A stretch of DNA of 64,000 nucleotides from Nitrospirota bacterium (lineage in GTDB: Bacteria > Nitrospirota > UBA9217): positions 544,001 to 608,000 of the forward strand of contig CAVVUN010000001.1 of NCBI GenBank assembly GCA_963751455.1, given 5' to 3'. The notes beneath the pieces are model-generated. The model had not been told where the DNA came from. It saw only the letters and a list, made by a program, of their open reading frames with translations, and did no database searches. This document shows positions 3,395 through 16,274 of this stretch, in pieces (the stretch's first letter is position 1; each line of letters begins with the position of its first letter). The position numbers and the translations under genes are program-made.

Positions 3395-6055
3395 TTATCG
3401 TCGATCTATAGAATATGAATAAGATCCACTGGCGGAACCACAACCCATGTTGTTACAACCTATGAATCTGAGCTTAGTCCTCTTGAATTGTCCTGGATTA
3501 GCATAGTACTGAAACGTCCCCGATGGCCCGCTGATTGAACCGTCATTAGATGATGGAGTCGGTGCAGATGGCGTGCTAGGCGTACTGCCGTCATACGTGT
3601 TGACCATCGTATAATAAATTGTCGTGGCACCGCTACTGCCGACGCTGATATTCTGCGGAGATGACGTCCAGCTGCCGCTGGACGGGCTTACCGCGACACT
3701 GCCCGGCACTGTCCTTAAGTCTATCGAGTATGAGTACGATCCGCTTGCTGGTCCGCACCCCGCACTATTGCAACCTATAAACCGGAGCTTGGTTCTCTTG
3801 TGCTGATCAGAGCTTGCGTACAACTGAAACGTTCCGGAAGCTCCGCTGATTGAACCGTCGTTCGAAGAGGGTGACGGCGCATCAGGATCAGAAGGCGCAC
3901 TGCCGTCATACGTGTTGACCATCCTATAATAAATTGTCGTTGCGCCGCTACTGCCGACGCTGATATTCTGCGGAGATGACGTCCAGCTGCCGCTGGACGG
4001 GCTTACCGCGACACTGCCCGGCACTGTCCTTAAGTCTATCGAGTATGAGTACGATCCGCTTGCTGGTCCGCACCCCGCACTATTGCAACCTATAAACCGG
4101 AGCTTGGTTCTCTTGTGCTGATCAGAGCTTGCGTACAACTGAAACGTTCCGGAAGCTCCGCTGATTGAACCGTCGTTCGAAGAGGGTGACGGCGCATCAG
4201 GATCAGAAGGAGTACTGCCGTCATACGTGTTGACCATCCTATAATAAATTGTCGTTGCGCCGCTACTGCCGACGCTGATATTCTGCGGAGATGACGTCCA
4301 GCTGCCGCTGGACGGGCTTACAGATATGCCAGCCGGTATGACTTCAGAATTGACAATAACAGTGTAGTTAACAATATTACTCATCTTACCTGAACTATCC
4401 GCACCCCACCAGGTATAGGTTCCAGCCGGTCGATCCGAAGGTATCGTGTAAGTGATGGAAAACGTTCCATCTGGTTTAATACTCTGCGAAAGAGTTGGGA
4501 ACTCTGAGCCATCGGGCTTCTTAAAATGAAGCACAGCTGTGCTGTTGGGAGTGAAACCTGTGCCCCACTGCGACACTGTATCGGCCTGCTTCGCCGTCAT
4601 CGGAGTCTGAGCAACTGTCGGGGATACTGTTATGCTATCGACAACGGAAAGGACGAAATTCTTCTCTGCTTTTTGTGAATTATTATCGTAAACTTGCACT
4701 GTAAACTGATAAGTTCCGGTATTTGTGGGTATTCCTGAAATCTCACCGCTTGCACTTAAGCTTAGACCTGTTGGCACTATACCGTCAGAAAGTTTCCATG
4801 AGTATGGCCACGAGCCACCTAAAGCTGAAAAACGGAAGTAATGGTAAGCGCCGACTTTACCAACAGATAGAATCTTCGACGTTGAAATTGATATTGGAAG
4901 AGGCTGCGACAAATTGTCAACAGAGATAGCACTATCTCGCTCTGCAATATCACCACTTGAGTCGGTTACAGCTACTGTGAATTGGTAGGTGCCTTGTTGT
5001 GAAGGAGCGCCAGAAATTACACCATCCTTTGATAATGAAATCCCGGGAGGCAGATTGCCTTTAGCAATTGACCATGTATATGGTGGAGTGCCGTCAACTG
5101 CGGACAAAATAAGACTAAAAGCGTTGCCAACAATTAATGACGGGCAATATGACAAACTCCCTTCAACTATACCAACCTTAAAATTCTTATCCTTTTTCGT
5201 AACGCGCAGACCGATTGCTTGGCCACCATTACCCGGAAGCTTACCAACACGCTCCCATTCATCAAGAAAGCTTTTCCTTGTAAAACTCCGTTTATGAGCA
5301 TACGTTTCATATAGCCAGGTCCGTCCGGGATCATTAGCATAAACATAATCTTCGTCAATCCCTACAACTAGCATCCAATGTTGGACGCTCCCTTGCTTCA
5401 TTGTCCCCGGAATCGAGTTATTACCTCCTTGGGAAGAAACTACAACTAAGACAGGGTTTCCGTCTGCTAATTCAGAACGTAGCGCTTCTAATGTTGGCTT
5501 TATGTACTCAACGCTAAAATTACCCTCTTTCTCTAACAACTGTTTCATCTGTTTGTTGTCCGTATAGTCGCCGGTGTATTTATCTCTTCCATATCTTGGT
5601 GGATTATAACCGTCAATATTAGAAATATTGTCAGGATATTGGGGACCCATCCAATCGATCATATTTTTCAGATTTGACCATGCAGTGTCATGATTCGGCG
5701 CGATATCGATGTGATAATGAAATGCTTTTAGCATCAAATAGCTTGCAGGCCCACAGTTCACATTATTTCCATCCGGGCCAGATTCAAATTGAGATATATA
5801 GGGAACATCAAGCGTTTGGCTATCCTTCTTTAATGCGTGCGGCGCCAAAACGGTTTTCGAATAAGTTGAATTTGTCGCGCTATTACCAACAACAGCAACA
5901 AGATCATCATGACTGACTATAACTGCTCCCGCCAATTGAGGCCCATCATCTATAGGATCGCCACTACCGCCACCGTTATGACAAGAAATTAGCAAAAGAC
6001 CAAATAAGAGGAAAAATATGATCCTTCTAACGAGTCTATATTTTTGTCTCATCAA
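3395..6055 (-). CDS. Gene cassette: lipoprotein with C39-like cysteine peptidase domain, two He_PIG/Ig-like domains and three 105-aa repeats
   Basis: Lipobox LLISC; Q...NCGPAS...QHWMLVVG...DP; GTPPYTWS...GNLPPGISLS..G.ISG.P Ig motifs; C-terminal repeats. Confidence 0.8.
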   Translation of the reverse strand: MMRQKYRLVRRIIFFLLFGLLLISCHNGGGSGDPIDDGPQLAGAVIVSHDDLVAVVGNSATNSTYSKTVLAPHALKKDSQTLDVPYISQFESGPDGNNVNCGPASYLMLKAFHYHIDIAPNHDTAWSNLKNMIDWMGPQYPDNISNIDGYNPPRYGRDKYTGDYTDNKQMKQLLEKEGNFSVEYIKPTLEALRSELADGNPVLVVVSSQGGNNSIPGTMKQGSVQHWMLVVGIDEDYVYANDPGRTWLYETYAHKRSFTRKSFLDEWERVGKLPGNGGQAIGLRVTKKDKNFKVGIVEGSLSYCPSLIVGNAFSLILSAVDGTPPYTWSIAKGNLPPGISLSKDGVISGAPSQQGTYQFTVAVTDSSGDIAERDSAISVDNLSQPLPISISTSKILSVGKVGAYHYFRFSALGGSWPYSWKLSDGIVPTGLSLSASGEISGIPTNTGTYQFTVQVYDNNSQKAEKNFVLSVVDSITVSPTVAQTPMTAKQADTVSQWGTGFTPNSTAVLHFKKPDGSEFPTLSQSIKPDGTFSITYTIPSDRPAGTYTWWGADSSGKMSNIVNYTVIVNSEVIPAGISVSPSSGSWTSSPQNISVGSSGATTIYYRMVNTYDGSTPSDPDAPSPSSNDGSISGASGTFQLYASSDQHKRTKLRFIGCNSAGCGPASGSYSYSIDLRTVPGSVAVSPSSGSWTSSPQNISVGSSGATTIYYRMVNTYDGSAPSDPDAPSPSSNDGSISGASGTFQLYASSDQHKRTKLRFIGCNSAGCGPASGSYSYSIDLRTVPGSVAVSPSSGSWTSSPQNISVGSSGATTIYYTMVNTYDGSTPSTPSAPTPSSNDGSISGPSGTFQYYANPGQFKRTKLRFIGCNNMGCGSASGSYSYSIDRR
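3405..4322. repeat. Three 315-bp intragenic tandem repeats
   Basis: gtcatacgtgttgaccatc at 3590, 3905, 4220. Confidence 0.9.
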
Positions 6056-6112
6056 AAACCTTCCCCTTATGCAAGCATCTTACTGACGACGTAGTCTAGG
6101 CATTCAATGTTC

Positions 6113-6371
6113 AATGGGGCGATAACTCGCTGCGCCCGCAGGGCGCGTCGGGTTCATTGCCTGGTTCCAGCGGCGCTTTGTACCGCGTCTCACAGGCAAT
6201 AAGCGAGTTATCGCCCCATTCCAGCGGCGGCTGGAACGTCCCGGATGAGCGGCTGCCCCCGCAGGGGGTAAGTCCGTCTCGATCCGGTTTGATGGCTCGC
6301 GCTGGTTTCGCGCGAGACATCAGGATCGGCCGCTCATCCGGGACGATGGACCGCGCGAAGCGCGGGCCATC
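6113..6371. other. Two tandem ~108-bp structured elements (three-way junctions) plus linker hairpins
   Basis: Perfect IRs 6113-6131/6202-6220 and 6237-6253/6329-6345, each enclosing a GCA-loop hairpin and a longer bulged hairpin. Confidence 0.8.
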
Positions 6372-6422
6372 GCGCGGGTAAGCCGCGTGCTTTTCGCGGC
6401 GGACTTGACCCGCTGGTTGAAA
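6365..6422 (-). other. attC site (one core degenerate, ATC for AAC)
   Basis: gcgcgggtaagccgcgtgcttttcgcggcggacttgacccgctgGTTGAAA, same family as 2598 and 14476; 13 nt from the stop of 6436-7851. Confidence 0.7.
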
Positions 6423-6435
6423 TCCTCGCTGTGTT

Positions 6436-7851
6436 TCATTGACTGGTCAATAAAACACACGGAACGATTGCGTTGGTCATCACCGGATTATATGAGGAGC
6501 GGGTCCAAGTCACTCCGTCCGGGGATGTAGCATAACCGATGTTGTCTTGGGTTCCTACCTGATACCAATACCACATTTTGTACAGACCACCATCGAAAAT
6601 GACATTTGGAACGATTGCGTTCGTCATTACCGGATTATGCGAAGAGCGGGTCCAAGTCACTCCGTCCGGGGATGTAGCATAACCGATGTTGTCTTGGGTT
6701 CCTACCTGATACCAATACCACATTTTGTACAGACCACTATCGAAAATGACATTCGGAACGATTGCGTTCGTCATTACCGGATTATGCGAAGAGCGGGTCC
6801 AAGTCAATCCGTCCGGCGATGTAGCATAACCGATGTTGTCTTGGGTTCCTACCTGATACCAATACCACATTTTGTACAGACCACCATCGAAAATGACATT
6901 TGGAACGATTGCGTTCGTTATTACCGGATTATGCGAAGAGCGGGTCCAAGTCACTCCGTCCGGGGATGTAGCATAACCGATGTTGTCTTGGGTTCCTACC
7001 TGATACCAATACCACATTTTGTACAGACCACTATCGAAAATGACATTCGGAACGATTGCGTTCGTCATTACCGGATTATGCGAAGAGCGGGTCCAAGTCA
7101 ATCCGTCCGGCGATGTAGCATAGCCGATGTTGTCTTGGGTTCCTACCTGATACCAATACCACATACTGAAAACCTTGCCCGTAGCTTCAGGTGTGGTACT
7201 CGTCACCGTTAAGGTATAGGATGTCGTTGAATTATCAGCGGCGGTAACTGTATATAAGACCGGATTTGTGAAGTCGTTCGGCGTTGTACCACTTACCTGA
7301 ATCGCAGAACCAACTTTGACGTTTGCGCCTGTTGTCGTAAAGGTTGCGACGAGTGCGGTAACATTCGTACCATTCGGGACAGTGATGGAGATTGTCTTTG
7401 CTGTTTCATTTATCGATCCTGTTGCAGCAGGGTTTGTGAATGAGAACGCTGTAAGGGCTTTTGCTGAACTGGAGGCTATCGTCACAGTCACAGTGTATGT
7501 TGCAGTTGAGTTATCAGCGGCAGCAACCGTATATGAAACCGGATTTGTGAAGTCGTTCGGCGTTGTACCACTTACCTGAATCGCAGAACCAACTTTGACG
7601 CTTGCGCCTGTTGTCGTAAAGGTTGCGACGAGTGCGGTAACATTCGTACCATTCGGGACAGTGATGGAGATTGTCTTTGCTGTTTCGTTTATTGTTCCTG
7701 TTGCTGCAGGGCTTGTAAAAGAAAAGGCAGTGATTGTTTTTGAACTGTCCGAGTTGCCTCCTCCTGTGCTCGTATTGTTATTTCCGCTGCAAAAAGACAA
7801 AGCAACGCCAACCATTAACATAAAGAAAGCCCATACCATACGTCTAAGCAT
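6436..7851 (-). CDS. Gene cassette: secreted/lipoprotein with two Ig-like (DUF5018-like) repeats and five near-identical 49-aa repeats (five-bladed beta-propeller)
   Basis: Signal/lipobox LSFC; ITAFSF...DFTNPV.YTV.AAD repeat twice; MWY...IGYATSPDG.TW.R...NPV five times. Confidence 0.8.
   Translation of the reverse strand: MLRRMVWAFFMLMVGVALSFCSGNNNTSTGGGNSDSSKTITAFSFTSPAATGTINETAKTISITVPNGTNVTALVATFTTTGASVKVGSAIQVSGTTPNDFTNPVSYTVAAADNSTATYTVTVTIASSSAKALTAFSFTNPAATGSINETAKTISITVPNGTNVTALVATFTTTGANVKVGSAIQVSGTTPNDFTNPVLYTVTAADNSTTSYTLTVTSTTPEATGKVFSMWYWYQVGTQDNIGYATSPDGLTWTRSSHNPVMTNAIVPNVIFDSGLYKMWYWYQVGTQDNIGYATSPDGVTWTRSSHNPVITNAIVPNVIFDGGLYKMWYWYQVGTQDNIGYATSPDGLTWTRSSHNPVMTNAIVPNVIFDSGLYKMWYWYQVGTQDNIGYATSPDGVTWTRSSHNPVMTNAIVPNVIFDGGLYKMWYWYQVGTQDNIGYATSPDGVTWTRSSYNPVMTNAIVPCVLLTSQ
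6450..7165. repeat. Five 147-bp intragenic tandem repeats
   Basis: ttgggttcctacc at 6547, 6694, 6841, 6988, 7135. Confidence 0.95.
7200..7735. repeat. Two 279-bp intragenic repeats
   Basis: ccggatttgtgaagtcgttcgg at 7260 and 7539. Confidence 0.9.
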
Positions 7852-7867
7852 TTTCTGGTTCTCCTTC

Positions 7868-7936
7868 TGGAAGTTAAGCGGTCATTGTCCGCTTGTACTG
7901 CTGGTTGGCACAGAGCGGTATTTTGCCGGAGCCAAC
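7868..7936 (-). other. Gene-less 33-bp mini-cassette followed by degenerate attC
   Basis: GTTGGC-21 nt-GCCAAC then CAGCAGTACAAGCGGACAATGACCGCTTAAC; 45-bp homolog at 12159-12203. Confidence 0.55.
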
Positions 7937-7988
7937 GCGCGGGTGTGGGGCGCGGTTCGCAGCGACCCACACGACCCGCTTGTTGAAG
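7930..7988 (-). other. attC site
   Basis: AGCCAAC gcgcgggtgtgggg...cccacacgacccgctt GTTGAAG. Confidence 0.85.
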
Positions 7989-8024
7989 CGATTTTATGGG
8001 ATGCAATAAAGTTATTTTTACGCG

Positions 8025-8366
8025 TTATCCTATCGGAGAGTCCACTTTATTGAGAATTGGTCGTCGCCCATGTATACTTGTAAATTGATTTAACCAAGTT
8101 CTTTCAAGTTTAGGTAGGTTTTTTGGATTGTAGATTGCAAAGTAGAACCAAATCGCCTTACCTTCTAGTGTTGGATTTGTTTTTTCTGGATTGTCGAGGT
8201 GTTGCTGAAATCTAACGAATAAATTATCCGAAAGTCCAATATATAGGATGTCATTGTCAAACGTAGTAAGAACATAACAACCTGTCTCATTAGGTACTGA
8301 TTTAAACGATGCACGTTTAAAATGTACCTTGTCTTTTGGTAGCGGAATTAGTTCGGTGATCTTCAT
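8025..8366 (-). CDS. GIY-YIG nuclease-family protein
   Basis: GCYVL...LYIGLS...RFQQH...LE...LN motifs; ATGA-type overlap with the upstream gene. Confidence 0.8.
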   Translation of the reverse strand: MKITELIPLPKDKVHFKRASFKSVPNETGCYVLTTFDNDILYIGLSDNLFVRFQQHLDNPEKTNPTLEGKAIWFYFAIYNPKNLPKLERTWLNQFTSIHGRRPILNKVDSPIG

Positions 8367-9502
8367 AATTCCATTTCTTTTTCCGTTTTAATGTCGGATT
8401 GTTTATGAAGCGCCTTCACCATTTCGCTATTTATCTTACTTAATGCGCCAGTATTTAAACCACTTGCAGTACCACTTTTCACCCAGAAATCTGTATGGCC
8501 AACTCCAGCTCCATCACCTTCAACATTTTCAAAAACATTTTCCAATAATGACTGCATCGTTGAAACTTTATAATCGGGCATATTAACCATCTTGTTGTAA
8601 AATGGAACGCAAAATTTAGAGAATAATTCAACTCCATTGTATTTGAATAGAACTGTTGGCTCACTATCGCCGAGAATGTTGGTAATAGCCTTCCAATAGT
8701 TCATGTAAATCCTATGTTGCCTGTCTTCCTTTTCTGTGTTGCAAACAGGATTATTTGCAACTAAAACATATTTCTTAATTGCTTTCACAAAACTCTTCTG
8801 ATTAATACTTCCATCACTATTATCATCATTGGCCATTTTAATTTTATTTTGCCAAGGACTGTCTTTGTCATTGTTTAAAAAATCTACATACTGTAGAGCT
8901 TTTTCATCTTCACCTTTTTGGACTGAATTGAGAATCCATTTTGGTAAATTTGGCGTATCATCGACACCCATTGCTTTTGTTAATCTCGCTCGGATTCTCT
9001 GAGCAACGCCTTCCTCAACACTTTTTTGTGTGGTATTAACAATGAGGAAGTGACACATTTGCGCAATCTCAGAAAGATTAACTGCAATATTGACAGATAC
9101 TTCAAATTCTAGAACACGAGGATCTTTATCAGCCGCCATTTTTAAACCTTCAACACGGTGTTGACCATCAACAACATTGAATGGCCCTACTTCATCGATG
9201 TCTATTTCAATGGTGTTATTATTCGGATGGAATGCTATATTTTTATCCGTTGCAATAAAAATGCTTGTCGGCAAAAATGCATCTTTAGTTTCTTGTCCCG
9301 CAACAATATAGTCGGCAAGCTTTTTTGCTCTTGACTTGTTTAGTAACCGCTGATAACCCTTATCACTAGCATTTTCAGGGTCGAGTCTCTCTATGCTATA
9401 AAAGTTCGGAATTATTAAATCTGAAACTTTTAATGATGTAGCGTAAAGGATCAGATCTCCTTGTTTTACCAAAGAGGCAGGTCTAACGATTTTCTTACTC
9501 AT
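8363..9502 (-). CDS. DGQHR-domain (DndB/ParB-like) protein
   Basis: GYQR...VVDGQHR...INTTQKSV-like motifs; start moved to ATG 9502 behind AAGGAG. Confidence 0.85.
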   Translation of the reverse strand: MSKKIVRPASLVKQGDLILYATSLKVSDLIIPNFYSIERLDPENASDKGYQRLLNKSRAKKLADYIVAGQETKDAFLPTSIFIATDKNIAFHPNNNTIEIDIDEVGPFNVVDGQHRVEGLKMAADKDPRVLEFEVSVNIAVNLSEIAQMCHFLIVNTTQKSVEEGVAQRIRARLTKAMGVDDTPNLPKWILNSVQKGEDEKALQYVDFLNNDKDSPWQNKIKMANDDNSDGSINQKSFVKAIKKYVLVANNPVCNTEKEDRQHRIYMNYWKAITNILGDSEPTVLFKYNGVELFSKFCVPFYNKMVNMPDYKVSTMQSLLENVFENVEGDGAGVGHTDFWVKSGTASGLNTGALSKINSEMVKALHKQSDIKTEKEMEL

Positions 9503-9526
9503 ATTTTCATCTCTCCTTTTTAATGT

Positions 9527-9560
9527 GTCGGCAACAATACTTGTCTCAAAATCAACCAGT
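9527..9560 (-). other. Candidate attI crossover site
   Basis: GTTGCCG core (AAC at 9533-9535) just upstream of the first cassette RBS, between array and divergent intI. Confidence 0.45.
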
Positions 9561-9956
9561 GTTTGATGGGACGGAAACCGCCCCGCCATTTCAGAAAATT
9601 CGGTAATGGCGGGGTGAAAATTAAATATTTTTGTTCAATAATGTAAACTTCTGCAACTGCGGTTTTCGCCTTGCCAAATACTGAATTTCGGAATTGGCAG
9701 GATAAAATTTCTGCAACTTTAAATGCAAATCGAGTATATTTTATGCATTATGGCCTGTCAAGATAAAGTTGTTCAAAGTTGTTGAATATTCGGATCGGAA
9801 TACAACGCGAGAACACCTTTCCCGAATTAAGAAAAACACATGAATGAGACACTCTTATGAATACCAGCATGATGATAGCGTTCTCCTCTTGATAAGTGAA
9901 CATTTGTTCACTATATTATTGTTTATATGGTTCATGAAGCTGTCTGAAGCAACCGT

Positions 9957-11288
9957 TTGATTCTCATACGACCCGTGCAACCCATACCCAAAGATATTCT
10001 GGCTAAATTTGACGGCATTCTGAAACAACGGAATGTCCCCCTTTGCTCCCGATCCGATTACCGGAAGTGGCTGCTGTATTTTCTCGACTTCCGAGCTAAA
10101 TATCCTCTTCCGGAAGGCAAATCGGATCAAGTGAGGGCGTTCGCGGACAAGCTGCGGTCAAAGAATCAATCCTCCATGCAAATAGAGCATGCAGCTAAAG
10201 CGATTTCGCTGTTCTTTGCTTTGCAACAGGGAAAAAAGACTATTTCATCGTCGGCCGCCGCGCAGATTGCGCCTCCTGCAGCCGGGCCGCATTGCGGCCT
10301 ACAGGTAAAATACATCCAAGCACAGCAACTGTGCTCAACAACAGCGACGAAGGAATCCGAGATGGTTTGCGAGCCGCCGGCGCCCTCCGCGCCGTACACG
10401 CCCAGGATCCGGGGCGGCAAACACTACGATGAATGGCGCTGCCTCAAAAAAACCGAATCCCCGGCGTGGGACAAGGTCATTGAAAATCTTGCTGCGGAAA
10501 TAAAGCTGCGGCATTACTCTCGAAAAACGCTCAAGCATTATGCGGACTGGAGCCGCAAGTTCCAGAACTACCTGAAAGACAAACCACCTTCGGAATTGTC
10601 TCCATCGGAGGTGAAGGCGTACCTGACGTATCTGGCCGTGAACTGCAAGGTATCCTCAAGCCACCAGAACCAGGCGTTCAACGCACTCTTGTTTCTGTTC
10701 AGACATGTTTTAAAGACAGATTTCGGCATCCATAAGGACATCCCGCGCGCGAAGAAATCGAATTACATTCCCGTGGTTCTTTCCCGCGAGGAAATCGACG
10801 CTGTTTTGAGACATCTCGAATATCCATACAAGCTTGTGGCCCAACTCCAGTACGGCTGCGGGTTACGCATTTCGGAAGGCTGTAAACTGCGGGTGAAGGA
10901 TTTCAATTTTGACGCCGGCATTCTCACTGTCCGCGGAAAAGGCGATAAAACCCGCACCGTGCCTATTCCGCAAAGAATCGTGCCGGAGCTTCAGGCCCAA
11001 ATAGAGACCGTGAAAAAAATGCATGACGAGGATCTGGCAACAGGGTACGCAGGGGTTTTTCTCGATGATCAACTGGAGAAAAAATATCCACGAGCCGCGA
11101 AGGAGCTTGTCTGGCAATGGTTTCTCCCGAAGCAAACGTTAACCTTTGTTGCGGAAACGAAGGAGCGGCGGCGGTATCATCTTCATGACTCTCATGTTCA
11201 GGATGCGCTGAACGACGCCGTCAGGAGGGCAAAGCTCACTAAGCGCGTTACCTCCCACACCTTCCGTCACTCATTCGCGAACCTTTAG
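9957..11288 (+). pseudogene. intI: Integron integrase, long N-terminal form, 3'-truncated by transposase element
   Basis: IKLRHYSRKT, SSHQNQAFNALLFLF, YGCGLRISE, RGKGDK.R, IntI-specific KYPRA.KELVWQW, HTFRHSFA then immediate stop; LLGH...TMIY (catalytic Tyr) missing. Confidence 0.9.
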
Positions 11289-12157
11289 CGAACCTTTAGG
11301 AACCTTTAGGAACCTTTAGGGTCAAGTCTTTTTCGTTGCATTTTCGTATTCACGAAGCCAGCGGCTGATCGTCGAGTAGTGGACGGCCACATGGCGGGCT
11401 AGTTCACTCTGATGATAACCGTATTTTTCCACGGCCTCGGACACTTTTTTCATCAGTTTGCGATGATTGTTCATGACTGAGTCGGGCAGCAAAACGGCAA
11501 GCGACGGCCGGGTCGAATATCGCTGACTCCGGGGAATTTCGGGAATGTCGATACCCCACTGAACGAACTGGCGATACTCTTTTTCCGCTTTATCTCGTTT
11601 TCTGCTGAATTGACCGAGCACCCAGTCCTTTGTGAGGCAGGGGTGAGATTCAGCTTTACCCGCGGTCGCAAGGTAACTGGACCACTTCCAGCCTTCCGGC
11701 GCTTCGACCATCCTTGCTCTTACCGGATTTAGAACCACATATCGGCAGACCTCAAGGAGATGACTGTCTTTCTGGATCAAGATAGCCTTATACCGGCCCT
11801 GGAATAAATGCCCGGACCTGCCGTGATACTTGTTGAAAAGTTGCGTATACACGCTGTTCAATTGGCGCATACCGAGAGAAAGATTGCCTTCCGGGGTCTC
11901 GATAAGAAGGTGGTAATGATTTGTCATGAGGCAATACGCATGACAGATCCAATTGTACCGCTTGTTGACGTGCTGGACCGTGTTCAGGAAGTTTTCGCGG
12001 TCCTGGTCGTTTTTGAATACGGGCTTCTTTTCGTTACCACGAGAAGTTACGTGATAGACTGCACCGGCATATTCTATTCTTAGAGGTCGGGCCATGGGGC
12101 GACTGTAGCAGAAATCAGAATGAAATGCAACGAAAAAGACTTGACCCTAAAGGTTCC
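11280..12157 (-). mobile_element. HUH/Y1 (RAYT-like) transposase element, copy 2
   Basis: Perfect 35-bp IRs 11309-11343 / 12123-12157; four AACCTTTAG units at 11280, 11291, 11301, 11311. Confidence 0.85.
11322..12095 (-). CDS. Y1/HUH transposase, copy 2 (32-aa in-frame internal deletion)
   Basis: Near-identical to 1594-2463 but lacking GKKTIW...KKHK. Confidence 0.9.
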   Translation of the reverse strand: MARPLRIEYAGAVYHVTSRGNEKKPVFKNDQDRENFLNTVQHVNKRYNWICHAYCLMTNHYHLLIETPEGNLSLGMRQLNSVYTQLFNKYHGRSGHLFQGRYKAILIQKDSHLLEVCRYVVLNPVRARMVEAPEGWKWSSYLATAGKAESHPCLTKDWVLGQFSRKRDKAEKEYRQFVQWGIDIPEIPRSQRYSTRPSLAVLLPDSVMNNHRKLMKKVSEAVEKYGYHQSELARHVAVHYSTISRWLREYENATKKT

Positions 12158-12196
12158 CCTTGGACTGCTAGTTGGCGTAGAGCGGTATTTTGTCGG

Positions 12197-12253
12197 AGCC
12201 AACTCGCCGGTCACTCGCCGCAAGGCGAGTCGATGTGGACCGGCAGGTGATAT
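12197..12253 (-). other. attC-like site (degenerate core GGT for GTT)
   Basis: GCCAAC tcgccggtca-ctcgcc gcaa ggcgag...ggaccggca GGTGATA. Confidence 0.55.
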
Positions 12254-12312
12254 TTTTAACGCGACGCTGAGGGGCGCGTTTTCAGCGACCCTCTCGAGCG
12301 CTATGGTTAGAA
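12254..12312 (-). other. attC site
   Basis: TTTTAAC gcgacgctgaggggcgcg...cgaccctctcgagcg...GTTAGAA; nearly identical to 59180-59239. Confidence 0.85.
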
Positions 12313-12437
12313 CGCTCACAAAGAAAAAGTATTAATAAGTGATGTCTGACACTGCTACATGATCACATTGATTTGTCCTTAGAAGTTGATGTGGTGCATC
12401 TGCACCACTTTCATGGCCGCTTTGATAGAAATGGGCT

Positions 12438-14360
12438 TTACGATCTAAATCTCTCACCAACAAGATGTATCGCCAGCTTTGCAAATTCATACAGATCCGC
12501 GTTATCCCGTTCAATTAATTTTATGCCTATTTCTGTAACTTCTGGAATAAGCAAGCAGAGAAATTTCCTTTTGTTATGTGCCATATCTCTTGATAAATTA
12601 AGTGCGGCAGTAAATAATTTATTTGCTTCGCCATAATTCGCTTCCAACAAGTAACACAACGCCAAGTTGTAAGATACTAGTGCGTCAGATAAACTAACTG
12701 ATGTTTGTTTTTGCGCTTTAATTAAGTACTCCTTAGCCTCCGAAATTTTGTTTAATGATAAATAAAGGTATCCGATATTGTTTAATACAGATACACTACT
12801 TTTCTTATCGCAAAAGGTAAGCGCTTTTCCCAAGTCACTGATTACCTCAAGTCGATAACCACCGTATTTGTCATTCCCGGTTTTAGCAAGTTCAAATTTT
12901 GTTTTTGAAAGGTTGTCATATACCGTAAAGCATCCCTTCATATTTGTTGACTTGCAGATTGTTATTGCTTTTTGTAAATCTATACAAGCTTCTTCTAGCT
13001 GCCCTATGTTAGATAAAGATGCGCCTCTAGAACAAAGTGCTCCTGCATGATTTGGCTCATACGATAAAGCTTTATTGAAATATTTAATTGCCTGCGTATC
13101 GTCATCCGTTATTAGCCCCAACTGGTACCAAGCATTTGCATTATTTTCATCAAAGGATAATGCTTCGGTTAGTGCTTTTTTTGCGTAATCTTTTTGGTCT
13201 AAACTTTTCAAACAAATTGCTTTGCAGACATGATAGCTAGATTCACTGGACCTTATTTTTATTGCTTGATTAAATTGAAGCAATGCCTCTTGATAGTCAT
13301 CGTTGTCTAGAAGAAGTAATCCATAATGGAAATGGATGGAAGAACAACCGTTATTGAAATCCAGTCCTTTTTTATAGCAAATAGCAGCCTCGTCCTTTCT
13401 GCCCTGTTGCTCCAGTAGAATTGCTTTGTGATGCCATAAATATTCGTTTTTTTCATCAATTTTAATTGCATCATTTAAGCAGTTTATGGCTAAATCTTTT
13501 TCATCTTGCTGAGTAAAAATTTCTGCTTTTAAAATTAATAATTGCACGTCGGAACTATGATCTTTTATTAATTCGTCAAGAAGCTTCTTTGATTCCTCAT
13601 ATTTCTTTAAATTGACCAGTATCTGTATTTTTTGGTAATAATAAAAAGAGGTTAATGTAATATTATATTTTTTGGACGCTTTTTCTATTTCGTTCACACA
13701 GACCCGGAACTTAATTTCGTCATCTGTGGTTATCTTACTTCCACTATTTTTAAGTTCTGAAAATGTTACAAGGGACTCTTTGACTTCTTTCTCAATATAA
13801 TCTTTTTCAGGAAATACCAGTTTCATAAATGCTTCTTCAACCAGCGGCTCAACTTTCTTCAGTTCGTTAGTCAATATTTCTCTTAGATTCTTGGGATCAC
13901 TATATTTATATCTGACATACATTTGATCTTTCACGTCTGAGAAGTCCTTGTCCATGTCTATCAGTGCAACAGGAGGTTTCTTCATCGGCTCTTTCATAAA
14001 GCTCTGAATATCAATACATGCTTTTTGTTCCAGCAGCACTATACAAGGCTTGCGAAGTCCAACCAGAATTCCATATTCAAATATAACATTCGGCCTAAAA
14101 CCATCCAAAATTATGATCGCTAACGAGCATCTATTTAAAAAATCTAGAAGCTGAGAGTATTGACTGTGGCCAGGTATTCCATGGATTGAAAGTCTTTTTG
14201 TATCATATTTTCCTGTTGCTTCTAATACTGTTTCAATGGCATCAAGCGTGATCGCAATATGCGGCTCTCTAGACGAATAAACAATGAAACATGTTTTTGT
14301 TGATTCTTTATGCATGTCTAGTCGTATTTGCATGTAGTGAACAATTTTTGTTTCATCCAT
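12438..14360 (-). CDS. Gene cassette: N-terminal nucleoside 2-deoxyribosyltransferase/TIR-like domain fused to TPR array
   Basis: CFIVYS...RCSLAIIILDGFRPNVIFEYGIL..LRKPCI; many TPR motifs (AWYQLG, ALCSRG, VLNNIG). Confidence 0.7.
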   Translation of the reverse strand: MDETKIVHYMQIRLDMHKESTKTCFIVYSSREPHIAITLDAIETVLEATGKYDTKRLSIHGIPGHSQYSQLLDFLNRCSLAIIILDGFRPNVIFEYGILVGLRKPCIVLLEQKACIDIQSFMKEPMKKPPVALIDMDKDFSDVKDQMYVRYKYSDPKNLREILTNELKKVEPLVEEAFMKLVFPEKDYIEKEVKESLVTFSELKNSGSKITTDDEIKFRVCVNEIEKASKKYNITLTSFYYYQKIQILVNLKKYEESKKLLDELIKDHSSDVQLLILKAEIFTQQDEKDLAINCLNDAIKIDEKNEYLWHHKAILLEQQGRKDEAAICYKKGLDFNNGCSSIHFHYGLLLLDNDDYQEALLQFNQAIKIRSSESSYHVCKAICLKSLDQKDYAKKALTEALSFDENNANAWYQLGLITDDDTQAIKYFNKALSYEPNHAGALCSRGASLSNIGQLEEACIDLQKAITICKSTNMKGCFTVYDNLSKTKFELAKTGNDKYGGYRLEVISDLGKALTFCDKKSSVSVLNNIGYLYLSLNKISEAKEYLIKAQKQTSVSLSDALVSYNLALCYLLEANYGEANKLFTAALNLSRDMAHNKRKFLCLLIPEVTEIGIKLIERDNADLYEFAKLAIHLVGERFRS

Positions 14361-14475
14361 GGTGCATTACTCCCTTCTGGAACATAGATACTGCGTAGAT
14401 TGAGCTGAATGTTCTTTGTGAAACCCAACAAACCTTCTGAAGAAACGTTGATCAAGCTGAACCATTTTGCCCAGC

Positions 14476-14533
14476 CTACAACGCGCGCGTGAGGAGCAAG
14501 CTTTTCGCGACTCACTCGACGCGTATGTTATCT
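14476..14533 (-). other. attC site
   Basis: CTACAAC gcgcgcgtgagg...ctcactcgacgcgtat GTTATCT; overlaps the stop of 14528-15517. Confidence 0.9.
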
Positions 14534-15517
14534 TACAGCCTCTTGGAGCACCTTCAGGTGCTCTGATGTTTCTTTGCTTTTAGGGTTCAATTTCAAACTT
14601 TCCTGAATTACTTTCTCAGCCTCTGCCGACTTCCCCATTTTATGTAATATCCATCCCTTCGTATCGAGAAAATATGAATTGTCGGGTTGATGTTCTAGAG
14701 CTGCTGTTATAAGACCTACAGCTTTATTGAGGTACTTTTCGTTCTCAGCATAGTCCATCGCAAGTTCATTCATAATCATTGGATCTTTCGGATATAGAGA
14801 TTGTGCAGTTTCTAATGTTGTCAATGAGCCAGACAGATCTTTAATATCTTTCTGGAACCTAGACAGCATTATATAAATATCTGCCTTTGAAACTGTCTCT
14901 GCATCATGAGTGTCGCGTTTCATTTCTGAGATAAAACTTTTAAGAATGTTTATAGCGATATCAATATTACCTTTTACCCAATTACACATCGAGCTGATAA
15001 TTGCCTTCTTAGTTGGATCATCACATTTTGCTTCAGCTTTATGTAAATGTTCGAGAGCTTCATCTTTTCGACCCATTTTCTTCAAAATTTTAGCAGTCTC
15101 TATATGAAGCCCGATAGCGTCAGCGCCGTTTCTTAACGCTTCTTGACATGCCTGGAGAGCCATTTCGGTCTCATTGAGCGCGTCATAACATGTCCCCACT
15201 ATAAACAGGGCGAAATCATCTCGGGGATTAAGCATCAAATATTTATTAAAGTAGAAGACGGCATTTTTATAATTACCAAGATTTAAATAAGAACGCCCAA
15301 GATAGTACCAATTGTATTTTGAAAAAGTCTTGTCATTATTATGTGAACTTTCAGATTTTTCAAATTTCGATATAGCTTTTCGGTACTTTCCCAGTTCGAA
15401 AAATATATTCCCCAGATTTGCATAATGTGTTTCTTGAAGGGTAGGTATGGTCCAAAAAACAAGGTGATTCCAATATAGTTTCAGGTACAAGATCAGATAT
15501 CTTAATCGAGTAGGCAT
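14528..15517 (-). CDS. Gene cassette: TPR protein
   Basis: Repeated TPRs (YANLG, WYYLG, FLDTKGW); bounded by attC sites. Confidence 0.8.
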   Translation of the reverse strand: MPTRLRYLILYLKLYWNHLVFWTIPTLQETHYANLGNIFFELGKYRKAISKFEKSESSHNNDKTFSKYNWYYLGRSYLNLGNYKNAVFYFNKYLMLNPRDDFALFIVGTCYDALNETEMALQACQEALRNGADAIGLHIETAKILKKMGRKDEALEHLHKAEAKCDDPTKKAIISSMCNWVKGNIDIAINILKSFISEMKRDTHDAETVSKADIYIMLSRFQKDIKDLSGSLTTLETAQSLYPKDPMIMNELAMDYAENEKYLNKAVGLITAALEHQPDNSYFLDTKGWILHKMGKSAEAEKVIQESLKLNPKSKETSEHLKVLQEAVR

Positions 15518-15531
15518 AAGCTTTTTTAAAT

Positions 15532-15581
15532 TGATAACAAAGAATTGAGCGGCTAAAGGCCGCTCAAATATTTCGTTAAAT
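15532..15581 (-). other. Short attC site
   Basis: TGATAAC aaagaattgagcggc-taaag-gccgctcaaatatttc GTTAAAT. Confidence 0.75.
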
Positions 15582-15661
15582 GGTTGACTAAGTTTCTTTG
15601 CTCGACCCGGATGGTTGAGTCATCCGTCGGGTTTCATTCTACCAGACTTAATCTCGCTGTT

Positions 15662-16274
15662 CTATTGTTCACCGGTCAATAAAGCAAAGAACATTTTATC
15701 AGCTAACAAATTGTCGACAGCCATGTCAAAAGCCTTATCATATAAATCCTTTCCCAATTTTATAAATTCAGCAGAAGAAGAATAGCCTTCCGTAGTCAAT
15801 GACAGCGAAATATCTTTCTTCTTTGTGTCATAGATTTCCCATTCAAATCTGACAAATACCTCTCCTTTAGTCCCGTGGACAGAGCCACACGTATTCGCTT
15901 TCACATCGGCAATCTTTCCGCCTAATAATAGTTCAGCTTGCTTACTATAATTCTTCATTAAACGGAGAATATGCTTTCCCAATGAGAGAATAACCATGTT
16001 TATCCAATTTATTTCTAACTACGTTGGCAACGTCGGTAACTACTCTTTCGTTTCCAGACCAACGTAATTCCCCGCCGGACATACACCATACCCCCCGATA
16101 AGCCTCGCCGATAACTGTATTCGCTTCTACGGCATCAACCAATTTATTTACTGATATTGATTTTGACTTATTTTTAAGTTCAATGGGGAGCTGACGTGTT
16201 ACGTTTTTTGACAAAGGTGCCATTGTACAGCCAACAAATGATCCGCAAATAATCAAAATCAGCCATTTCTTCAT
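15662..16274 (-). pseudogene. Frameshifted lipoprotein (probable cassette gene)
   Basis: Lipobox FVGC; two overlapping ORFs joined by a one-base shift near 15950 (GAA T TAT AGT). Confidence 0.65.

Follow-up and report, generated by a model that had tools for sequence, protein, structure and literature searches.

A gene for a DGQHR-domain protein and a gene for a stand-alone GIY-YIG nuclease together form a true integron gene cassette in the analysed window (the whole stretch of 64,000 nucleotides), and this pair is a real, tightly conserved, mobile and translationally coupled two-gene unit in which both sets of motifs are intact. Judged from sequence and genomic setting, the pair is probably a defence system, a reading which is supported by the conservation, mobility and coupling of the unit, its intact motifs and its position near defence genes. 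We further lean towards the view that the pair represents an undescribed two-gene anti-phage system of wide distribution. In it, the DGQHR protein would be an NTP switch whose N-terminal DNA sensors can be exchanged, and it would license the free GIY-YIG nuclease in trans.

The two genes fill one cassette of 1.6 kb in the first slot of the array (Table 1), and the stop codon of the DGQHR gene overlaps the start codon of the nuclease gene by 4 nt (ATGA). The upstream boundary is marked by a block of about 60-100 bp, which is common to eight genomic stretches and ends at the GTT triplet (9556-9554). As all eight copies diverge immediately past this triplet, we assigned it as the attI crossover; a conserved inverted repeat lies just upstream of it in all attI copies. 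At the other end, the attC site forms a bottom-strand hairpin (z = -3.2; equal stability in 0 of 200 shuffles) and belongs to a family of repeats along the array, with related repeats at 2605, 3278, 6371, 12260 and 14482. In an independent sediment run, one contig of 1685 bp spans precisely positions 7934-9556, with 42 differences (97% identity), indicating that the cassette has the same boundaries elsewhere. The GC content of the pair is 0.36 compared with about 0.51 for the genome. Taken together, the crossover, the attC hairpin and the sediment contig bear out the initial annotation, which had proposed a single cassette beside a predicted attI, and its description of an AT-rich, coupled pair of a DGQHR gene and a 113-aa GIY-YIG gene agrees with the ATGA overlap, the low GC content and profile scores above the cut-offs of both families.

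Table 1. Features of the cassette and of the adjoining integrase region, in positions of the window.
Feature	Position	Strand	Support
DGQHR (ParB/Srx-fold) protein gene, 379 aa	9502->8363	-	TIGR03187, PF14072
Stand-alone GIY-YIG nuclease gene, 113 aa	8366->8025	-	PF01541
attI crossover triplet GTT, cassette start	9554..9556	-	Eight genomic copies; independent contig ends at 9556
attC closing the cassette, R'' 7982-7988, R' 7930-7936	7930..7988	-	Hairpin; independent contig ends at 7934
Candidate Pc promoter TTGACA-17-TATACT, pointing into the array	9733..9761	-	Consensus match
Integron integrase, C-terminally truncated	9957..11288	+	TIGR02249 292 bits, positions 2-269 of 315
RAYT-type (Y1) transposase element, 35-bp inverted repeats	11309..12157	-	NF047646 over cut-off

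Only 52 nt separate attI from the start codon of the DGQHR gene. An alternative in-frame start at 9589, upstream of 9502, is unlikely, since most relatives are 377-379 aa long, a ribosome-binding site precedes 9502 and the attI crossover would fall inside the extra part. The candidate Pc promoter is located ~180 bp upstream of attI and represents the best site of the region (11/12 consensus positions), as a pattern match alone. Directly after the attC of the pair, a gene-less mini-cassette occupies 7860-7936 (GTTGGC...GCCAAC together with a weak hairpin), and similar copies are found at 12155-12211 and on contigs C1 and C15.

The integrase gene adjoining the cassette stops after HTFRHSFA, a truncation that the initial annotation had overlooked, and is devoid of the C-terminal His/Tyr catalytic segment (LLGH...IYTH) of its paralogs; its C-terminus is cut off by a RAYT-type element that exists in many copies genome-wide. 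The adjacent IntI is thus not intact and has less than the full RHRHY catalytic set of a complete active integron. Two other near-complete integrase copies are interrupted as well, by a short insertion with a stop (C2) and by a short insertion together with a frameshift (C3), and no intact integron integrase was found in the assembly, despite at least eight attI-like sites on contigs C1, C2, C3 and C15. Because the integrase is broken, little can be concluded from the first position as to current selection, and it may just record the last capture. The earlier view of the first position as the best-expressed slot therefore holds for the position itself and less for what was read from it. In Vibrio, shifting a cassette to the first position can switch on defence, as described in bioRxiv 2024.07.02.601686. 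RAYT-type elements at 1563-2525 and 11279-12157 sit within the cassette arrays, bounded by 35-bp terminal inverted repeats and each flanked on one side by short AACCTTTAG repeats in tandem, and the integrase-truncating element abuts an attC-like site (12155-12211).

By its sequence, the first protein is a member of the DGQHR domain family: it scores 113.4 bits against TIGR03187 (cut-off 58.85) and 56.2 against PF14072 (cut-off 29.1), and it carries the QR (51-52), DGQHR (112-116) and FxxxN (152-156) motifs, which vary little or not at all among 67 relatives. The same three motifs are described for the ParB/DUF262/DGQHR group in PMC4619093 and PMC12065111. The protein consists of a nucleotide-binding-type domain (~1-160) and a helical C-terminal domain. 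Support for the predicted fold is middling: the structural model (mean pLDDT 75, pTM 0.50) matched best to the N-domains of ParB, Noc, PadC and KorB with middling Z scores of 5.6-6.9 (VIA-align, best Z 6.9), Foldseek returned no match at E<=0.001 for this model of pTM 0.50, and no DGQHR relative was found in a sequence search of solved structures. The host genome (100% complete, 5.4% contaminated) contains this single gene of the DndB family, and paralogs of either gene of the pair were not detected in it by tblastn.

Among the best 120 DGQHR matches, 19 carry N-terminal extensions. Six types were distinguished in proteins and loci together (counted without L067 and L072), which occur in separate parts of the tree and require 10 changes by parsimony. 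Eight sequences carry Mrr_N, in one case together with DUF4268; two have DUF5655, which scores at the cut-off, and two share a domain with PADLOC PDC-S11 that is EVE/HNH-like as a lead only. The other three types are uncharacterised. For the extension of L008, the Atlas gave a lead to EVE/HNH clusters (0.86), and a 95-aa N-terminal domain (residues 1-95 of P0012 and seven relatives) had no match in Pfam or the Atlas. An 850-aa extension of L079 was dropped as a probable artefact of a GC-rich frame. NsnA of Menshen shares this layout: Mrr_N may be present or not, and its add-ons are interpreted as additional DNA sensors (PMC12065111). DUF4268 accompanies GmrSD (PMC4619093). Since DNA-binding-type domains appear to have been gained repeatedly at the N-terminus, sensing of DNA with the nucleoside triphosphate as a switch is favoured, and the nucleotide-sensing sensor that had been suggested from the sequence is left as one option.

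The second protein belongs to the GIY-YIG superfamily by both fold and Tyr-Tyr-Arg-His-Glu-Asn active site. It passes the cut-off of PF01541 (32.5 versus 22.6), and its model (pLDDT 94) was matched by Foldseek to the GIY-YIG domains of GrxS16 and UvrC. Residues Y31, Y42, R52, H56, E88 and N106 are invariant in 88/88 and 120/120 close relatives and nearly invariant in 115 distant relatives; their catalytic roles are assigned by analogy to UvrC and I-TevI and from the alignment with UvrC. A conserved N-terminal arm of ~24 aa precedes the catalytic core, and the 113 aa leave no room for a recognition domain, which suggests that specificity or control must come from elsewhere. A word search yielded 416 relatives of the nuclease. 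At E<=1e-10, 187 clusters at 50% identity were obtained, and every representative of the best 150 of these clusters is at most 187 aa long. A fused DGQHR-GIY-YIG protein was found neither among these 150 representatives nor, in a weak search, among longer proteins. The broad nuclease profile detected nothing in 400 genomes of the host phylum, and distant nucleases share 29-45% identity. The sole partner-less nucleases that we found stem from three Rhizobium plasmid records representing one locus. All three lack the N-terminal arm, and Gly replaces the invariant Arg52 in each, combined with a frameshift in the third record.

For the DGQHR protein, 1953 relatives were collected at E<=1e-10, with the best 120 at 79-100% identity. 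We fetched 86 loci, taking in 80 of 326 confirmed metagenome matches; the genome-contig search with a single protein gave one locus, and named genomes are under-sampled in this set. The nuclease gene directly follows the DGQHR gene in all 78 loci whose downstream sequence exceeds 100 nt, down to 52% identity, while the other 8 of the 86 loci ended at a contig edge. The conservation across genomes that had been put forward as a check was thus confirmed. At the junction, a 4-nt overlap is present in 62 of these loci, a 1-nt overlap in 9 and a gap of 3-10 nt in 5, and the DGQHR frame is broken in the remaining 2; after removal of near-duplicates, 69 of 73 full pairs are distinct. No third conserved gene belongs to the unit, as none recurs in more than 4/89 loci. 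Both genes are under purifying selection, with median dN/dS values of 0.09 (366/2346 unsaturated pairs) and 0.17 (508/2346). The distances of the two proteins correlate (rho 0.79, 0/999 permutations), which shared descent alone would yield, and of 19 strong splits in the nuclease tree 10 are common to the DGQHR tree and 6 are in conflict with it.

The pair occurs in Panacibacter (89% identity), Chitinophaga, Bacteroidales, Patescibacteria and Deltaproteobacteria, on plasmids of Sinorhizobium, Rhizobium and Cupriavidus and also on viral contigs. It was detected neither in 400 other genomes of the host phylum nor, by blastn, in 5,426 E. coli genomes, nor did 50,697 phage records contain a close relative. 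The GC content of the pair is below that of its flanks in most loci. Hairpins similar to attC follow the pair in 9/65 loci compared with 0/195 shuffles, three of the nine being one lineage and one (L083) doubtful. Because the scanner recovered the attC of the cassette itself but only 3/5 of the other sites in the window, this number is a lower bound, and it points to cassette life as one of several modes. On a Providencia plasmid (L093:3959-5829), a distant relative of the DGQHR gene (25%) lies between umuD and umuC and has a different gene, of 294 aa, behind it. Therefore, the pairing with GIY-YIG appears to belong to the DGQHR clade described here, and the Providencia genes are possibly another DGQHR two-gene system.

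To describe the genomic setting, 110 immediate neighbours of at least 100 aa from 67 loci were scanned (L002, L026 and the plasmid loci set aside). Restriction-modification domains (types I, II, ISP and Vsr) were detected in 12/110 neighbours at E<=1e-12 and in 15 at 1e-5, two of them probably from one locus. The control of 121 ORFs in 20 fixed stretches of the host genome, which is host chromosome and not matched mobile DNA, contained 0 restriction-modification domains at 1e-12 and one toxin-antitoxin toxin. About 4 in 5 neighbours are not recognisable as defence genes. Adjacent or second neighbours include AbiE, AbiH, AbiL, Lit, SIR2, TIR, Shango-like and WYL genes, the second neighbours also type IIG enzymes and HerA, and some neighbours are helicases. 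In three loci (L001, L052 and L063), the pair is placed behind restriction-modification operons with gaps of 25-55 nt. As the neighbouring methylases vary between loci, no methylase belongs to the unit. In four further loci (L073, L078, L082 and L083), the pair stands beside a DUF2460 gene, within tail regions that resemble those of phages or gene transfer agents, and in L083 it borders the tape measure gene.

To our reading of the features analysed, the pair is not a member of the DndB, DpdB, GmrSD or Menshen systems. PADLOC 2.0 (2023) has no model for a DGQHR and GIY-YIG pair and returned only weak DpdB and DndB matches for the pair and a UzuA match for the nuclease (E=0.019), in line with the proviso that it should not be an already named system. 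No description was found in open main texts; neither the main text of bioRxiv 2024.07.02.601686 nor a term search of 2024.07.02.601719 gave a mention of GIY, DndB or ParB. A pairing of a ParB fold with GIY-YIG was thus not found in print, and it may have been named before. The proposal of a candidate anti-phage system is therefore partly supported by computation, through conservation, the proximity to defence genes and the missing PADLOC 2.0 match.

The DGQHR protein shares its family (PF14072, TIGR03187) with DndB and DpdB and differs from both in having a fixed nuclease partner. It reaches 25 of the 328 bits needed for DndB (52 of 450 for TIGR04172) and 57 versus 300 bits for DpdB. The absence of dnd genes, initially stated for the window, extends to dndC and dndD in the entire host genome, and DpdA, DpdC and DpdD had no matches among 94 proteins of related loci or 9 nearby proteins of the window. 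Within the same 94 proteins, Dnd and Dpd searches gave just generic helicase matches and weak DpdB scores, the latter from the DGQHR proteins.

GmrSD, BrxU and SspE resemble the pair in a ParB/Srx-fold NTP-binding-type domain with QR/DGQxR/FxxxN, a helical domain and a coupled DNase; GmrSD moreover works without a cognate methylase, and the first GmrSD consisted of two proteins (PMC4619093 and PMC10952713). In contrast, the pair belongs to the DGQHR clade, has GIY-YIG instead of the DUF1524 HNH domain and is encoded by two genes in every locus seen, whereas GmrSD is mostly fused. Unlike in SspE or Dnd-type settings, there are no ssp or dnd modification genes. Membership in GmrSD/BrxU was rejected on both domains: PF03235 (GmrSD_N, DUF262) scored 21.2 versus a cut-off of 33.2, and there was no DUF1524 match, with GIY-YIG as the partner in 78/78 loci. 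The structural similarity of the DGQHR model to BrxU (Z 4.3) and SspE (Z 4.0) is in the background range.

The DUF262-containing Menshen NsnA, Dazbog and PD-T4-2 systems likewise have a ParB-like sensor gene in first place, with optional N-terminal sensors including Mrr_N (PMC12065111). The pair differs from these systems in having no ABC ATPase (NsnB) and no inPIN-RNase or HEPN partner, and the PADLOC models of all three matched neither protein. Menshen was rejected, as the NsnB ABC ATPase and the NsnC effector are absent and no third gene is conserved. GIY-YIG is also the presumed effector of PD-T4-3, PD-lambda-1 and Uzume (bioRxiv 2024.10.26.620412 and PMC10952713); these are listed as single-gene systems, while the minimal nuclease described here is tied to a DGQHR gene. 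GIY-YIG (URI) nucleases near Dnd clusters, as noted in PMC10853773, represent a different setting.

By analogy to these systems, a split GmrSD/SspE-like sensor-NTPase and nuclease directed against foreign DNA is the best-supported mechanism, with a probability that falls somewhat short of even. The DGQHR protein would bind DNA and a nucleoside triphosphate, with NTP binding and hydrolysis expected from its family, and DNA would be recognised by its helical domain together with the optional N-terminal add-ons. Through physical contact, it may then switch on the GIY-YIG partner, so that foreign DNA is nicked or cut. Foreign DNA would presumably be told apart by phage base modification or structure and not by a self-methylation mark. 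The pair would thereby work like a split GmrSD/BrxU/SspE, with GIY-YIG replacing the HNH domain. NTP hydrolysis is described to license the nuclease in GmrSD, BrxU and SspE (PMC10952713 and PMC13251355), and in SspE it is coupled to nuclease activation (PMC13251355).

The strongest competitor, which we regard as rather unlikely, is a guard in the manner of toxin-antitoxin-like abortive infection: the DGQHR protein would bind and silence a sequence-unspecific nuclease, which would be set free by a phage protein or by an NTP level that shifts upon infection, and host and phage DNA would be destroyed together. The fixed order with the putative antitoxin first, the coupling and a 113-aa nuclease without a DNA-recognition domain are in agreement with it, and the armless Rhizobium nucleases with Arg52->Gly fit a guard at least as well as the split sensor-nuclease. 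However, these orphans represent one evolutionary event and could reflect decay after loss of the partner, and in L028 an intact nuclease is found beside a DGQHR gene with a premature stop at codon 340, which could be an assembly error. The DNA-binding-type add-ons of the DGQHR protein moreover point to DNA sensing. The toxin-antitoxin-like pair considered in the initial annotation is thus weakly supported, by a single lineage of partner-less nucleases without the catalytic Arg.

That the pair is a selfish module for addiction or array stabilisation and plays no part against phages is improbable. Such a module would explain the patchy distribution with signs of transfer, such as the absence from 400 genomes of the host phylum next to 89% identity to the Panacibacter protein, as well as the attC-like sites behind some pairs. 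In contrast, the 52 nt between attI and start codon are too short for a promoter of its own, which toxin-antitoxin cassettes carry according to bioRxiv 2024.07.02.601686, and the pair is also found behind restriction-modification operons. Slightly less probable still is a DndB/DpdB-like ATP-modulated repressor confined to transcriptional control, either of the nuclease gene or of restriction genes next to the pair. The best library matches are indeed DpdB and DndB, and DndB is described as an ATP-dependent repressor in PMC10853773 and PMC12704722, but the scores are far under the cut-offs of both and the cassette form appears to lack a promoter. That the protein acts purely as a repressor is unlikely because no shared operator was found, no 8-mer or palindrome upstream being shared more widely among 53 loci than in shuffled sequence (best in 6; shuffles 4-8), and because the cassette leader measures only 52 nt. 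Least probable of all is an accessory of DNA repair or recombination with UvrC-like or Slx1-like incision and no relation to conflict, for which GrxS16 and UvrC as nearest solved structures and some helicase neighbours speak, and against which the patchy presence, the GC content under that of the flanks in most loci and the restriction-modification neighbours stand.

DGQHR proteins are annotated everywhere, and their role is disputed between repressor, NTPase and nuclease. Should the split sensor-nuclease reading be true, they would have an independent function beyond Dnd and Dpd. If protective, the pair would add a defence system that extends across Bacteroidota, Pseudomonadota, Patescibacteria, plasmids and viral contigs. 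As a minimal unit of 1.5 kb with two genes, intact motifs and no accessory genes, it lets the control of a separate nuclease by a ParB-fold switch be studied, and the N-terminal add-ons already present in nature can be compared to find out what the system senses.

A second same-strand cassette stretch with TPR proteins lies past the broken integrase (12200-16274), with attC-like sites at 12200-12250, 12260-12313 and 14482-14535 and a 640-aa protein that has a weak N-terminal nucleoside-deoxyribosyltransferase/TIR-like match. Between cassettes at 6100-6430, strong hairpins rich in GC are clustered, with z as low as -6.8. Two genes for large predicted surface proteins, one at 3395-6055 with a C39 peptidase, Ig domains and 315-nt repeats and the other at 6436-7851 with DUF5018 and 147-nt repeats, are of unusual length for cassettes.
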